NCBI GenBank assembly: GCA_016928255.1
Contig: JAFGLB010000037.1
Location: forward strand, 1-46,974
Reading direction: 5' to 3'
Source of the DNA: Bacteroidota bacterium
Lineage (GTDB): Bacteria > Bacteroidota > Ignavibacteria > UBA10030
DNA length: 46,974 nt
The position numbers and the translations under genes were made by a program. The notes under the pieces were generated by a model that was given only the letters and a program-made list of their open reading frames with translations, had not been told where the DNA came from and made no database searches. Positions 802 through 4,753 of the stretch are shown piece by piece (positions within the stretch are counted from its first letter, which is position 1; every line of letters begins with the position of its first letter).

Positions 802-1785
802 TTATTTCAGTGTCTTGAATTTATTCCGCCAGTCGTTTATTTGCCGGCTGTATTTTTGAATTACTATACAGTAACTTCCCGATAAAAAAAGCGCCAGCAT
901 TATTGAAACAAAAATAATTACAGCTTTTTTCGGATGTTCTTTTTTGGCTGCCGCCCTGCCGTAATCCAGTACGTTTATTATCGGTGTTGTCCTGATTTCT
1001 TCAATTCTTGCCAGCTCATACTGCTTCTTCAATTCTATATACATCGCCGAATTGATCTCTACCTCCCGTATCAGCCTTTCCTGGTTGAGCAGTAATTGAG
1101 GAGAACCGCTTACCACCCGGTTTTTTTCACGGAATATTTTCAGATTATTCTCCGATTTTGCAAGATCAGCTTTTACTTCTTCGAGCCGCGCTTCTATCCA
1201 CTTCCTCTGTTCCAGCGCATTTGTATTTCTCTTTGTGCGTATAAAATCATCCGCTTCGCAAATTATATTGTTTAAAATATCGGCCGATAACCGGGGCTCT
1301 TCTGTTTCGATAGACATTGTCAGGACCGATGTTTTTGCATCCATCGAAATACTGAGCTTTTCACGCAGTGCTTTTTGAGCAACTTCATAATCGCGTTCCG
1401 GAGTATTTTCCTTTATTTTCCAGTACCGTATCAGATCAACCGAATCCTCATACTCATTTGTACGGTATTTTGAATAAATAACATTTCTAAGCACCGACTC
1501 GCTTTTTATGATGGTCGGATACAGTTTGGCGGTCGCCACTTCCCCTCCGATATTCAGTCCCGCAAGAGAAGCAAGATTCGATATGCTCCCAAGCGAAGCA
1601 AGTTTCGATTTGTCCGTATCAGGCAGGAGAATTGCGGTCGATTTGAATGACTCGGGCAGTATGAAACTTATCACTGCCGCCAGTATCGTTATACTCGCTG
1701 TCGCAATAACTATAACTCTTCTCGAACGCCACAGGATGGAGAGGTATTCGAAGTAATCTTTTCGTTTTTTTTCTTCAGTCTGCAA
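802..1785 (-). CDS. Wzz-type polysaccharide chain-length determinant (PCP family, GNVR-like C-terminus)
   Basis: N-terminal TM followed by LPESFKSTAILLP, a coiled-coil centre, and C-terminal INVLD...HPKKAVI plus TM. No tyrosine-kinase domain. TTG start. Confidence 0.85.
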   Translation of the reverse strand: MQTEEKKRKDYFEYLSILWRSRRVIVIATASITILAAVISFILPESFKSTAILLPDTDKSKLASLGSISNLASLAGLNIGGEVATAKLYPTIIKSESVLRNVIYSKYRTNEYEDSVDLIRYWKIKENTPERDYEVAQKALREKLSISMDAKTSVLTMSIETEEPRLSADILNNIICEADDFIRTKRNTNALEQRKWIEARLEEVKADLAKSENNLKIFREKNRVVSGSPQLLLNQERLIREVEINSAMYIELKKQYELARIEEIRTTPIINVLDYGRAAAKKEHPKKAVIIFVSIMLALFLSGSYCIVIQKYSRQINDWRNKFKTLK

Positions 1786-1807
1786 TTTATTGTCGTTTAA
1801 TAATTTT

Positions 1808-1849
1808 GTGATTTGTAATTAGTGATAAGTAATATGTGATTAGTGATTA
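1808..1849. repeat. Six tandem 7-nt units, consensus GTRATWW; overlaps the stop codon of the four-helix-bundle gene
   Basis: GTGATTT GTAATTA GTGATAA GTAATAT GTGATTA GTGATTA read directly from the sequence. Confidence 0.85.
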
Positions 1850-2214
1850 GTTTTTATGCTCTTTATAAGACCACTTAAGAGCATTTCCACTTCTGATAAG
1901 CGCTTATTTATTGTATCGTTTATTTCTTCGTCAATAAAATTCAATTTGTATGATATTTCAATTTGCGAATCTATCTCACTCAGAGAACCCTGTGCCATAT
2001 TCAAAAAATGGATTTTATCTTTTTCGGTCCTTCTTGTTAATCCTTCTGATATATTTGAAGGGACAGAAACAGCAGCACGCTTTAGTTGTGCTTTTAATCC
2101 AAATTCTTCTTCACGCGGAAATCGTTTTGTGATCCCATAAATATATACAATAAGATCAATTGCTTTCGTCCATAATTGTAATTTCTTATGTGGTTTTCGT
2201 CTCTCCAATTCCAT
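1840..2214 (-). CDS. Four helix bundle protein (23S rRNA-IVS protein / S23 / TIGR02436-like family)
   Basis: HKKLQLWTKAIDL...FPREEEFGLKAQLKRAAVSVPSNISEG...FLNMAQGSLSEIDSQ family signature; GGGAG SD upstream; visibly AT-rich. Confidence 0.92.
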   Translation of the reverse strand: MELERRKPHKKLQLWTKAIDLIVYIYGITKRFPREEEFGLKAQLKRAAVSVPSNISEGLTRRTEKDKIHFLNMAQGSLSEIDSQIEISYKLNFIDEEINDTINKRLSEVEMLLSGLIKSIKTNH

Positions 2215-2229
2215 TAACTTTTTCTCCCT

Positions 2230-2320
2230 TCACTTATTACTTATTACCTATCACTTATCACTGTTTACCGTTTACCATTTACCGTTTACTTATCACCAAT
2301 CACTTATAACTAATCACCAC
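2230..2320. repeat. Thirteen tandem 7-nt units (TYACYNN), reverse-complementary to the 1808-1849 array
   Basis: TCACTTA TTACTTA TTACCTA TCACTTA TCACTGT TTACCGT TTACCAT TTACCGT TTACTTA TCACCAA TCACTTA TAACTAA TCACCAC; two more units ACTGTTT at 2351-2364. Confidence 0.9.
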
Positions 2321-2325
2321 TTTTA

Positions 2326-2348
2326 CGAAAGCTGAAGCTTTCGGCTAC
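2326..2348 (-). repeat. GTAG-type REP-like palindrome
   Basis: Minus strand reads GTAGC-CGAAAGC-TTCA-GCTTTCG: a GTAG tetranucleotide followed by a perfect 7-bp stem. Confidence 0.55.
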
Positions 2349-2362
2349 CGACTGTTTACTGT

Positions 2363-4753
2363 TTACTTCGTAATCTGCACAATTCCTATGGTGATAGCAG
2401 CAAGGCTGGCAATGATAGTTGCCCAATCCCGCAGTATTGCAAGGGTTTCTGTTTTAGTTTCAATTTTCTTGGGGACATAAACAGTACTTCCGCCAAGAAT
2501 ATCATTGCTTGAGAAGAGGTAGAACTTATCTTCCCATCGCCTGCCGTTGGGCAGTATCACCACTATCCTGTCTTCGTCGGCTTCATCCGTCATTCCGCCT
2601 GCCTGTTCTATATAATAATCCAGGCTTGCACCTTTTTTATGAACAACTGCGGCCTGAACAAATACTTCTCCCCGCACCTTGACAACTTCCTGTTGAAAAG
2701 AAATCATAATTGAATCGCCGGCAAGCAGTTTGATATTTTCGGAGGATTCAGTGTCGTCAAGCGCTTTTTCAAAATCGATCGGTACTAAACCCGCGTTGTT
2801 CCACTTGCGCACCAGTGTGGATCCTTCCAGGTATGCACCCGGGCGAAGTCCACCTGCTCTGTTGATCAGGCTCGAAAGTCTCTCGTCCTGTTCACTGAGT
2901 GCATAAGAACCGGGATACAGCACATAGCCATGAATTTCGACGACTCTTTGTTTATTGTACTTCGGATTTGAAGGCACCATCAAGTGATCGAAATCCTCCA
3001 GGTAACTCGATTCGCCGTTTTTTTCTTCCCAGTATTCATTTTGAACATTGAATTTTCTGATTGTGCTGAATGAACCTATACGAGTCGTATCGAGCCGCGA
3101 CAGTTCCCATGAATATTTCGAAGCATTTTCGGTAAGCCCTCCGGCCATGACTACCAGATCCGCAATTGTCATATTTTCGTGGCGCGGGTATGTCCCCGGT
3201 TTCCTCACGGCACCTCCCACGCTCACTGTATGTTCCGGAAAGAACTGGCTCTCTTTATATATGACAAGCGAGTCCTCGTTCTTCAGCTCAATATTATTTT
3301 CCGGATCATCCAAGAAAGCGAGACGCGGATTGAAAGAAATTATTTCCCTGCGGAGATTAGCCAGCATACGGAAGAGAGTGCCGCGCTCGGTAAAAGTATT
3401 GCGGTCCAGGCTGTCTGCTTCATACAAAAGGTCTTTTATACGCATTCCCGATTTTAATTGAAATGTCCCGGATTTTTTCACATTGCCTGTTATAATCACC
3501 CGGTTTTCGGGAATTGATCCCACCTGGTAGACAGAAACTATATCGCCGTTCTGTATTTCGAATTTGCTTTCTGCTGCTTCGCGGTATGTATTAAAATGTA
3601 CGTCGAAATCAAGAAAGTTCTGAGAATGTTTTTTTCTTTCATCAAAGGGAATAAGCCGTTCGATATGAATACGTTCGAAATACGCATCGAACCTCAGTCC
3701 TCCCGCGAATCCGATCAGCGTGCCGAGATTTTCATTCTCCTTTATCTCATATATTCCGGGTCTCAGAACGTTGCCGGTTATTGCCGCCCTTGTTCCGACA
3801 GGTTTCACAAATACTATATCGCCATCCTGCAGGTGGATATCCTTGGAATTGTCGGCCCGCAGCGCGTAATCGTAAAAATCAAATACGCCTGCGGTGTTTC
3901 CGCTGCGTACAATCTGAATATTTCTGAGACTTCCGTTAATTGAAGGACCTTCGGAAAGATAGAGAGCATGCAAGGCGGTGGATAATGAAGACAGTGAATA
4001 CCCTCCAGGTTTGCGGACTTCGCCGAGGACAAATATCTGAATGGTCCTGATTTTCGCCAGAGAAACATCCAGGAATGAAGTCGCGCCCCGCCCGCCGTTC
4101 CTGAGACTTGAATATACAGCCGTCATCTGCCTGATCAGTTTATCCTTCAGATTGGGTACTGTTGTACCACCTGCCGAGACGGGGCCTATATCTGGAACCA
4201 GAATATTTCCTTCCCTGTTCACCGGCAGCTGATAGTATAATTTTGTGTCTCCCCACACTGCAATAACAACTTCATCACCCGGGCCCAATGTATAAGACGA
4301 CGGCGTAGCCGCATCTAGAATCGGCTCGAATGTCGATTGGGGATATTGAAAAATCGAATAGCCGAACGGTTTCAGATTTACAGCCGGCGGCCTTTCCGAA
4401 AATCCCGGAACTATGCTGTCGATTTCCATTCTTTCCGCTAATTGATGATCTTTTTTCTCTCCAAACCTTGAATCTTTAAAAGGCCCTGTTTTTTTGTATA
4501 ACGAATCGGCAGCTGACGGATACTGAGAGACAGGATTAAGAAATTCTTCAAGATCAATGTTGTACAGCGACGCCTGTTTAACTGCTTCCTCTCTTGAAAT
4601 TCCAAGTTCCTTAAGCCTTTTTTCCATATCTATCGGGTTCATCTTGTTCAGTGCGGATTTATTATGCGGTTTATTTTGCGCATGCATCTGCCGGGGAAGA
4701 ATTATCAAACCTGTAAGCAGAACAGTAACCAGGAGAATTGAATATTTACTCAT
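2363..4753 (-). CDS. Polysaccharide export protein, Poly_export domain plus multiple SLBB domains (Wza/KpsD-like)
   Basis: Signal peptide, YTLGPGDEVVIAVWG Poly_export motif, repeated V.GEV..PG.Y / AGG SLBB motifs, C-terminal amphipathic helix. Confidence 0.9.
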   Translation of the reverse strand: MSKYSILLVTVLLTGLIILPRQMHAQNKPHNKSALNKMNPIDMEKRLKELGISREEAVKQASLYNIDLEEFLNPVSQYPSAADSLYKKTGPFKDSRFGEKKDHQLAERMEIDSIVPGFSERPPAVNLKPFGYSIFQYPQSTFEPILDAATPSSYTLGPGDEVVIAVWGDTKLYYQLPVNREGNILVPDIGPVSAGGTTVPNLKDKLIRQMTAVYSSLRNGGRGATSFLDVSLAKIRTIQIFVLGEVRKPGGYSLSSLSTALHALYLSEGPSINGSLRNIQIVRSGNTAGVFDFYDYALRADNSKDIHLQDGDIVFVKPVGTRAAITGNVLRPGIYEIKENENLGTLIGFAGGLRFDAYFERIHIERLIPFDERKKHSQNFLDFDVHFNTYREAAESKFEIQNGDIVSVYQVGSIPENRVIITGNVKKSGTFQLKSGMRIKDLLYEADSLDRNTFTERGTLFRMLANLRREIISFNPRLAFLDDPENNIELKNEDSLVIYKESQFFPEHTVSVGGAVRKPGTYPRHENMTIADLVVMAGGLTENASKYSWELSRLDTTRIGSFSTIRKFNVQNEYWEEKNGESSYLEDFDHLMVPSNPKYNKQRVVEIHGYVLYPGSYALSEQDERLSSLINRAGGLRPGAYLEGSTLVRKWNNAGLVPIDFEKALDDTESSENIKLLAGDSIMISFQQEVVKVRGEVFVQAAVVHKKGASLDYYIEQAGGMTDEADEDRIVVILPNGRRWEDKFYLFSSNDILGGSTVYVPKKIETKTETLAILRDWATIIASLAAITIGIVQITK

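Follow-up and report, generated by a model that had tools for sequence, protein, structure and literature searches.

An S23p-family gene between complementary heptamer arrays in a polysaccharide-export operon: a candidate intervening-sequence-type cassette in an mRNA spacer

Introduction

What is a gene of the 23S rRNA intervening sequence (IVS) protein family doing between two genes for polysaccharide export, and do the complementary arrays of 7-nt tandem repeats that enclose it form a unit with it? Two older matters meet in this question: we know of no function for S23p/IVS proteins, though they have been recognized since the 1990s, and, to our knowledge, the over-representation of period-7 tandem repeats in many bacteria is likewise without a known cause. 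The locus is from a member of the Bacteroidota (Ignavibacteria, UBA10030), and the window referred to below is the whole stretch analysed, the 46,974 nt of contig JAFGLB010000037.1 (assembly GCA_016928255.1). A first-pass annotation made from the letters alone had pointed to a cassette of IVS type, and its claims are taken up where the relevant results are given.

The locus

Three genes, all on the minus strand in the ORF list, make up the polysaccharide-export junction. A Wza-like exporter of 796 aa (2363-4753; Pfam Poly_export 2.5e-16, SLBB 9.4e-47, SLBB_2 1.3e-31) is followed by a 124-aa gene of the PF05635/TIGR02436 four-helix-bundle family (1840-2214; S23p, the 23S rRNA IVS protein family), and this by a wzz-type chain-length determinant of 327 aa (802-1785; Pfam Wzz 8.7e-12, GNVR 4.9e-07) with a TTG start 54 nt beyond the small gene's stop codon. 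In the sense direction, the exporter stop codon (2363-2365) lies within a short block of distal heptamers (2351-2367, minus strand; AGTAAAC, 2.4 copies by Tandem Repeats Finder and direct reading). The upstream, or 5′, arm proper (2230-2317, minus strand) has 12.6 heptamers of sense consensus RGTRAnn (GTGATAA, GTAAACG, GTAATAA), is purine-rich and C-poor, and its 88 nt come in three adjoining Tandem Repeats Finder rows. Between it and the ATG is a purine-rich spacer (2215-2229, minus strand) whose AAGGGAGA, 9-16 nt 5′ of the start, is on direct reading Shine-Dalgarno-like and may act as such, similar GGGAGA motifs being present upstream of the orthologues. The downstream, or 3′, arm (1808-1851, minus strand; 6.3 heptamers, sense ACTAATC/ACTTATC, forward-strand unit GTGATTA) complements the upstream one and covers the last four codons and stop (1840-1842) of the small gene. 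The inverted arrays first described around the gene are thus recovered by Tandem Repeats Finder, as 6.3 copies on one side and 12.6 plus 2.4 on the other, and they do overlap both stop codons as had been noted. Also borne out is the density of sense-strand stops in the upstream region, which number 9, 6 and 8 in the three frames.

One element of the upstream side has to be set apart. The heptamers at 2230-2317 and 2351-2367 stand as originally described, and the stretch between them (2326-2349, minus strand) is a separate REP-like module, GGTA plus an 18-nt palindrome. It is a genome-wide repeat rather than a cassette-specific feature: 36 copies are present in genome G000 at up to 3 mismatches, and at 1 mismatch there are 33 in G000, 1-4 in six genomes of the same genus and 0 in the other 34. 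It is missing from the orthologous cassettes of relatives. The 18-nt module is nested in heptamer arrays, at times in tandem. An Rfam scan of 1600-2600 with E up to 1 gave 0 matches, and DNA contigs from one sequencing run, probably of the source sample, break at the palindrome and arrays. Two metatranscriptome runs from that study yielded no match to the locus.

The protein

Assignment of the small gene to the IVS protein family, proposed from its translation, holds. PF05635 matches residues 10-114 of 124 (3.7e-35, 120.8 bits, cut-off 33.8) and TIGR02436 matches at 2.4e-34 (117.8 bits, cut-off 24), while by sequence comparison PDB 2GSC (XCC0516), an entry with five chains, matches residues 6-120 (E 5.5e-27) and PDB 2RLD matches at E 1.8e-07. 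The accessible parts of PMC4990558 report the 2GSC homologue as a homopentameric toroid. Purifying selection acts on the ORF, for which comparison with the orthologues in G012 and G015 gives a pN/pS of 0.15-0.16. HMM searches found no known catalytic motif in this helical protein, and no transposase or recombinase at the locus.

The fold predicted from sequence is shared with Avd (bAvd), the accessory protein of diversity-generating retroelements (DGRs), to which PF22296 (E 2e-07) and NF033474 (E 1.4e-10) attest; homology of IVS proteins and Avd is also stated in the available portion of PMC10053308. However, the scores are below the curated cut-offs (31.9 vs 40 and 41.4 vs 80, respectively), and the gene adjoins wza and wzz, neither a reverse transcriptase nor template/variable repeats being found beside it, so that it does not qualify as a DGR accessory Avd.

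Pairing of the arms

The exact matches between the arms that had been quoted, 1822-1832 with 2286-2296 and 1843-1852 with 2308-2317, are correct, and arm pairs of 23-37 nt are 74-81% complementary. As anticipated from these, the predicted fold of 1790-2370 (minus strand) pairs the two arrays in a long stem that encloses the gene (-120.5 kcal/mol, z = -3.26, with 0 of 100 shuffles equalling it), and the energy of the arms by themselves is -35.7 kcal/mol, where 300 shuffles lie at -14.4 ± 3.2 and go no lower than -26.9. The locus therefore has the complementary termini by which an IVS is recognized, pairing in a stem with the ORF in its loop.

Across the family the arms are loosely matched, 231 of 1499 paired positions being mismatched. 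Among these the G·U type is not over-represented relative to the A·C type (52 vs 43, p = 0.41), and so selection at the RNA level on the sense duplex is not demonstrated. Nor are the long-range folds significant at paralogue L001 (z -1.2) or at locus L010 (z +0.6). For comparison among loci an ungapped complement score was used, RNAduplex on 150-nt flanks being too noisy (cognate -58.1 vs non-cognate -48.4, sd 12).

The arms as a property of the family

A check of paralogues and relatives, suggested at the outset, reveals that heptamer arms recur around this family. In Ignavibacteriota/Bacteroidota, 52 of 76 PF05635 loci have flanks complementary above the cut-off (a score of at least 11), comprising 30 of 48 in a first set and 22 of 28 from the wider phylum, as against 18 of 403 control small genes (4.5%) of the present genome. 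Since the sites of most clades are orthologous, these loci do not count as independent cases and movement must be slow. Such arms are thus a rule of the family and go beyond one locus. The 7-nt unit varies with protein clade, and even within this genome four of the five paralogues are flanked by arrays, with a different unit in each. One of the paralogues is between tRNA-His and tRNA-Glu, with its arms paired (fold z -2.9); at gathering thresholds, Rfam finds the two tRNAs and nothing else at four paralogue loci.

The arms are also polar, the AG-containing, C-poor side being that 5′ of the ORF. G exceeds C in the upstream arm of 51 of 57 arm pairs, and AG occurs within 32 of 35 consensus units where 23 are expected, none of 2000 shuffles being as high. 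Neighbours on both sides are co-oriented with the PF05635 gene at 63 of 72 loci, against a baseline of 68%.

Heptamer arrays elsewhere in the genome

Seven is the tandem period that covers most bases in the genome (5116 nt). Merged period-7 arrays of at least 21 nt number 93, are mostly intergenic, and only 6 of them adjoin PF05635 genes; in being intergenic 7-nt tandem arrays of which the genome has many, those at the present locus are STRR-like. Arrays that share the unit type of the cassette are at some 30 other sites without the gene, and inverted arrays with no ORF, i.e. hairpins, are present at C21 and C205. Hence the arrays are not exclusive ends of this cassette. To the question posed in the first-pass annotation, whether arrays occur independently of the gene, the answer is then in part yes. 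At the C21 junction the gene is in none of the 22 relatives' loci for which both neighbours were found, and arrays are present only in the nearest relative; that the hairpin there is a decayed cassette is accordingly not supported. The neighbours of C205 are not paralogous to those of C6. Among small ORFs beside arrays no other cargo family was found, just spurious repeat-spanning ORFs.

With single-linkage clustering, 88 of the 93 arrays were chained into one group, and motif classes were used instead; these are rough, leaving 47 arrays as 'other', some true class-W arrays among them. Each of the recognizable classes W, K, J and Q has one paralogue flanked by arrays of that class. Class-T arrays match almost exclusively at the two flanks of PF05635 genes. 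Class-W arrays are in 8 of 11 genomes with a class-W protein of at least 50% identity and in 7 of 30 without one, a comparison that overstates the link because the genomes are related. G014 has 37 class-W pattern hits with its best class-W protein 38% identical, and G030 has 26 with its best 49% identical.

The exporter-wzz junction in relatives

Comparison of this junction in relatives, likewise suggested at the outset, yields filled sites in some and empty ones in others. A PF05635 gene is between wza and wzz at 5 of 30 loci, and one of the five proteins is just 31% identical and has different repeats. Genus-wide the states are occupied, decayed remnant (G011), unrelated family member, and cleanly empty (G010, a spacer of 20 nt), with G009 having a solo array of 13 units. 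No target-site duplication was definable at the wza-wzz junctions of the relatives compared. From the distribution of these states, the cassette appears to have been acquired within the genus at this junction.

Interpretation

The explanation that best accommodates these features, and to which we give about an even chance, is an IVS-type cassette lodged between the genes of a protein-coding operon rather than in 23S rRNA, with RNA processing proposed by analogy. Its makings are the S23p/PF05635 gene, the purine-rich 5′ array and the complementary pyrimidine-rich 3′ array that frame it. No promoter or terminator signal above chance was found for the cassette, so it is presumably read through and co-transcribed with the operon. 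In the transcript the arms would pair to give a long imperfect duplex, probably forming in vivo also, from which the ORF is looped out. Such a duplex is a likely target for the double-strand RNase, RNase III, by analogy with 23S intervening sequences, and cleavage would give separate exporter, cassette and wzz RNAs, with a potential effect on wza and wzz expression. An RNase III gene is present in 40 of 40 relatives; a search of the present assembly (96% complete) did not recover one.

Other readings merit consideration. The abundance of arrays remote from any PF05635 gene invites the view, which we consider unlikely, that inverted heptamer hairpins are autonomous host repeats, akin to the STRR arrays of cyanobacteria, TAACTGA of Beggiatoaceae and GGGAATC of Xanthomonas and with their own role or dynamics, and that the gene is cargo in some of their loops without being served by them. 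The ORF-less hairpins, the gene's absence from C21 in all relatives compared, the many class-W hits of G014 in a genome where no class-W protein exceeds 38% identity, and the solo array at the G009 junction are all as this would have it, and Xanthomonas, for which the accessible text of PMC4692102 gives 70 convergent heptamer-array pairs, is a parallel. It leaves unexplained why over two-thirds of PF05635 genes are in such loops when so few control genes are, why class-T arrays are almost exclusive to the flanks of these genes, and why there is one flanked paralogue for each recognizable array class. That last correspondence, together with the conserved AG core and 7-nt register, is instead what would be expected if the paralogues act in trans. 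A pentameric S23p ring would then bind cognate single-stranded heptamers genome-wide, perhaps with one AG unit per subunit, and control translation, stability or processing at many spacers, the arrays flanking its own gene serving for autoregulation. The five chains of 2GSC and the toroid reported in PMC4990558 (available text), the co-occurrence of class-W arrays with class-W protein, and purifying selection on the ORF are congenial to this; the lack of a clear cognate protein in G014 and G030, the undispersed class-T arrays, and the kinship that inflates the two-by-two table are not. We regard it as improbable, and the same goes for its more specific form, in which the paralogues are putative ring-shaped binders, each for one AG-containing heptamer class, as RNA or single-stranded DNA.

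Least probable of the readings considered is a mobile element acting at the DNA level, whose arrays would be inverted subterminal repeats that bind its own protein or a host recombinase, much as some transposon ends do, with pairing of importance in double-stranded or hairpin DNA and not in RNA. The use of one unit in inverted arrays, rather than of a precisely co-varying stem, would fit, as would the lack of G·U excess, the tracking of protein clade by repeat unit, and the presence of two unrelated family members at one junction within a genus. Against it, there is no transposase or recombinase at hand and the 124-aa protein is devoid of known catalytic motif; junctions have no visible target duplication, most copies are old and at orthologous positions, and a symmetric DNA element would not be expected to have arms so strongly polar with respect to the ORF and to transcription of the neighbours.

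Relation to known systems

For the favoured explanation, an IVS-type cassette, the closest relatives are the 23S intervening sequences of Coxiella burnetii and Leptospira (PMC4990558, accessible parts), with which it shares protein family, a sense-oriented ORF, an inverted-repeat stem and heptamers 5′ of the ORF. As described there, the Coxiella IVS combines an S23p ORF with a terminal stem of 28 bp that RNase III cuts, as mapped by RACE, and has 2-3 tandem heptamers 5′ of the ORF in strain-variable number; their unit, GACAGAT, is similar to those that paralogue L001 has here, CAGAAT/ACAGAAG. The differences are several. The present cassette occupies the mRNA spacer from wza to wzz, and a paralogue that of two tRNAs, neither being in 23S helices, so a classical 23S IVS insertion does not apply; in 4 relatives the 23S gene measures 3018-3048 nt, the model having 2925 positions, and hence has no ORF-sized insert. 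In place of a near-perfect 28-bp stem there are long degenerate arrays of 44 and 88 nt, selection here maintains the ORF whereas that of Coxiella is decaying, and the RNase III cleavage demonstrated for Coxiella is for the cassette a proposal by analogy.

Intergenic period-7 arrays are also known as STRR in cyanobacteria, TAACTGA in Beggiatoaceae, Cyanobacteria and Bacteroidetes (PMC4679880) and GGGAATC in Xanthomonas (PMC4692102). From the accessible portions of these sources, co-oriented neighbours, frequent abutment of start or stop codons and fast copy-number change between relatives are common to those arrays and to this locus. Here, in contrast, the arrays bracket one gene family with fixed polarity, a link to PF05635 being absent from the available text of both papers (PMC4679880 has no instance of '23S', 'intervening' or 'four helix', and PMC4692102 none of '23S' or 'helix bundle'). 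Beyond the single Coxiella description, none was found in the searchable literature, outside which lie subscription journals and supplements. There is also some likeness to REP/BIME mosaics and to MITEs, in the short palindromes scattered in operon spacers, in arms that resemble terminal inverted repeats, and in the existence of occupied and empty sites. Tandem-heptamer arms, conserved protein-coding cargo, and the lack of a clear target duplication or a transposase distinguish the cassette from these.

Significance

Across one phylum, heptamer arrays that are inverted and polar typically frame the genes of the PF05635 family, and the IVS layout extends past rRNA to the spacers of mRNA and tRNA operons. 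For annotation, a spacer labelled 'hypothetical', or a contig that breaks at arrays of this kind, becomes the sign of a recognizable element. Two puzzles, the function of the S23p/IVS protein and the period-7 repeats, may be joined as one. If the improbable proposal of cognate binders were true, PF05635 proteins would have dozens of operon spacers as targets in trans, and their own arrays as targets in cis, and the 23S IVS, the mRNA- and tRNA-spacer cassettes and the heptamers of cyanobacteria, Beggiatoaceae, Xanthomonas and Bacteroidota would be one system.

Anatomy of the cassette

The repeat-bracketed PF05635 gene is real, and the coordinates and repeat matches quoted for it in the first-pass annotation proved right on sequence, tandem-repeat and inverted-repeat checks. 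The Wza-like polysaccharide exporter gene (wza), the small ORF and the chain-length determinant gene (wzz) are all on the minus strand. In transcript order the exporter (4753..2363) comes first, with two AGTAAAC units (2367..2351) overlapping its TAA stop, followed by a module with an 18-nt palindrome (2349..2326), an upstream array (2317..2230) of 12.6 RGTRAnn heptamers, a spacer rich in purines that contains AAGGGAGA, the 124-aa ORF (2214..1840), a downstream array of 6.3 complementary heptamers (1851..1808) that overlaps the ORF's last codons and stop, and wzz (1785..802), whose TTG start is 22 nt past that array. This start codon (1783-1785) is TTG in the window's own genome (G000) and in relative G015, and ATG in G007, G012 and G010, the last having an empty site; beside the downstream arm, the start region of wzz has been remodelled.

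The ORF product matches PF05635 (E 3.7e-35; Pfam) and TIGR02436 (E 2.4e-34; NCBIfam), the S23p four-helix-bundle family, and scores under the cut-off of the Avd models; its nearest solved structure is XCC0516 (PDB 2GSC, E 5.5e-27). It is under purifying selection (pN/pS 0.15-0.16). The stem that had been expected to loop out the gene is predicted: when 1790-2370 is folded as RNA the two arrays pair (z -3.26, 0 of 100 shuffles as stable), and the arms by themselves give -35.7 kcal/mol versus -14.4 ± 3.2 for 300 shuffles. A search of 1600-2600 for sigma-70-type promoters and intrinsic terminators gave no signal above chance.

The layout as a family property

Period-7 arrays adjoin four of the five PF05635 genes in G000 (3.16 Mb, 224 contigs, 96% complete), each time with a different unit: GTGATAA/GTAAACG in the window, GCAGAAT/ACAGAAG on contig C6, AAGAATK on C182 and GTAAAAT on C89. 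The C182 paralogue (locus C182:254-2842, gene at locus positions 1459-1824) lies between tRNA-His and tRNA-Glu on the same strand (1305-1379 and 1868-1941), with its inverted arms abutting both and pairing with a fold z of -2.9; it is an IVS-like insert within a stable-RNA operon. At two other PF05635 loci the long-range fold is not significant.

Wider comparison used a flank score, the best ungapped complement between 150 nt of upstream sequence and a 150-nt stretch spanning and following the stop codon. A first set of 48 loci was made up of five from G000, 15 of 17 (two partial matches being left out) and 28 of 29 from relatives (one being too close to a contig end). The mean score was 12.1 for cognate flanks versus 7.6 for non-cognate ones, and 30 of the 48 loci reached the non-cognate 95th percentile, as did 22 of 28 further loci across the phylum; among other G000 genes of 90-160 aa only 18 of 403 (4.5%) reached this cut-off score of 11. 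The loci are not independent, the first set representing 22 genomic contexts, or 21 after the left-out locus; by our own tally, 17 of the 21 contain one or more loci that reach the cut-off. Bracketing by inverted arrays, which the first-pass annotation had suggested looking for at paralogues here and in relatives, is a property of the PF05635 gene family, which is present in 39 of 41 relatives (283 matches) and 92 of 121 genomes sampled across the phylum. In the protein tree repeat units track protein clades, but most clades are orthologous positions. Reading of flanking ORFs places the window's clade at varied junctions of sugar-nucleotide and polysaccharide operons, namely wza-wzz, ugd-uxs, ugd-rmlA, gmd-fcl and uxs-gmd, the loci away from wza-wzz being L039-L046, L041/L075, L042/L072 and L066 in relatives and Bacteroidota MAGs.

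Gain, loss and replacement

Across 30 wzz loci in 26 genomes, G000 included, a PF05635 gene lies between wza and wzz at five, one of them being that of G000. Identity to the window protein is 85% in G012, 80% in G015, 54% in G007 and 31% in G003, whose repeat unit also differs from the window's; array length and sequence, in contrast to the ORF, vary even between copies 85% identical. Relative G011 (C13:1-2227, junction at about 727-1043) retains both arrays with the gene reduced to a C-terminal fragment, a decayed cassette, and in G009 an array of 13 units stands alone. Empty sites, which the first-pass annotation had suggested looking for in relatives, do occur: the spacer of G010 is clean, roughly 20 nt long and free of heptamers, and short plain spacers are found in more distant relatives too. 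From this mix of occupied, remnant, solo-array and empty junctions, the empty state seems to be the ancestral one, and the genus seems to have received such a gene independently at least twice.

The palindrome module (2326-2349) is REP-like, comprising GGTA, the 18-nt palindrome and TAAAAG. G000 has 33 copies, six genomes of the genus have one to four each and the other 34 genomes searched have none; about 25 of 36 looser G000 copies are inside heptamer arrays. Since orthologous cassettes are without it, the module is a later insertion into the window's array. Examples are at C171:26186-26321, C188:25378-25506 and C32:23347-23440, once as three tandem copies with period 56, and other palindromes, e.g. 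GGGGCACAATGCATTGTGCCC, often trail it.

Polarity, and arrays without the gene

In 51 of the 57 arm pairs the upstream arm is richer in G than in C, upstream arrays being 40% A, 29% G, 25% T and 6% C. The upstream consensus unit includes AG at 32 of the 35 loci, or in 24 of the 26 distinct units; the expectation is 23 loci, and 0 of 2000 shuffles reach 32. Both neighbours are on the gene's strand at 63 of 72 loci, versus a genome baseline of 68% for gene triples. Asymmetries of this kind suggest that the function is linked to the transcribed strand; the polarity of the arms favours a role in RNA or one coupled to transcription.

Of all tandem periods in G000, period 7 covers the most bases; its 93 merged arrays are mainly intergenic and, between co-oriented neighbours, usually read in the G-rich form on the sense strand. 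Independence from the gene, which the first-pass annotation had considered damaging to a cassette, is seen in G000, where at least 35 arrays at 32 places are of the window's class (W), about 30 of them lying elsewhere without the gene, and for ORF-less hairpins, but not for another class, T, whose pattern matches nearly only both flanks of PF05635 genes (G015, G014, G005, G004, G007 and G012), with 0 matches in G000. The ORF-less hairpins, at C21:2277-2454 (37-nt loop) and C205:1789-1900 (4-nt loop), lie between co-oriented genes. No PF05635 gene is at the C21 junction in any of the 22 relatives' loci that have both neighbour genes, so heptamer hairpins can arise without the ORF; arrays there are present, besides G000, in the nearest relative only. 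At C30:16351-34486 large paralogous ORFs (452-828 aa) stand in tandem, and the same heptamer stretch of 23-34 nt recurs seven times at a distance of about 200-330 nt from their 3' ends; it falls in frame under crude ORF calling, being either coding or a sign of unrecognised gene boundaries.

That PF05635 proteins act in trans on dispersed arrays of their cognate class is improbable, even though every recognisable G000 array class flanks one paralogue. Class-W arrays are present in 8 of 11 genomes with a class-W protein of at least 50% identity versus 7 of 30 without, but these genomes are related to each other, and two genomes are counter-examples: G014 has 37 class-W matches although its best protein is 38% identical, and G030 has 26 although its best is 49% identical.

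Relation to 23S intervening sequences

As described in the accessible text of PMC4990558, the 23S IVS of Coxiella combines a sense-oriented S23p ORF with a terminal stem of 28 bp, which RNase III cuts mid-stem, as shown in vitro and also by RACE; ahead of the ORF stand two to three heptamers in tandem, their number strain-dependent. On that description every part of the window element has its counterpart there; the window element lies in an mRNA spacer rather than 23S rRNA. From this likeness we read the window element as probably the same kind of cassette, an IVS-type element of an mRNA spacer, whose arm duplex would by analogy be a candidate site for a double-strand RNase. An RNase III gene is present as one copy in each of 40 of 40 relatives searched; its absence from searches of G000 (TIGR02191, PF14622) is probably a gap of this 224-contig, 96%-complete assembly. 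Counting against certainty of an RNA duplex, complementarity of the arms is only some 85%, and G·U-type mismatches (52) do not significantly outnumber A·C-type ones (43; p = 0.41); with the two non-folding loci, this means that the role may lie at the RNA or at the DNA level.

Heptamer arrays are on record, in the accessible text of PMC4679880, PMC4692102 and bioRxiv 10.1101/2022.06.06.494920, from cyanobacteria, Beggiatoaceae, some Bacteroidetes and Xanthomonas, the last with 70 inverted pairs (PMC4692102); function is there given as unknown and candidate binders as guesses. PF05635 is similarly termed functionally uncharacterised and Avd-like in what is accessible of PMC10053308 and bioRxiv 10.1101/2024.02.27.582315. 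In the literature searched, with supplements and subscription journals outside its scope, no paper apart from the Coxiella case was found to join the family to flanking heptamer arrays. The window element belongs to a widespread class, apparently undescribed, of IVS-like cassettes that lie outside rRNA.
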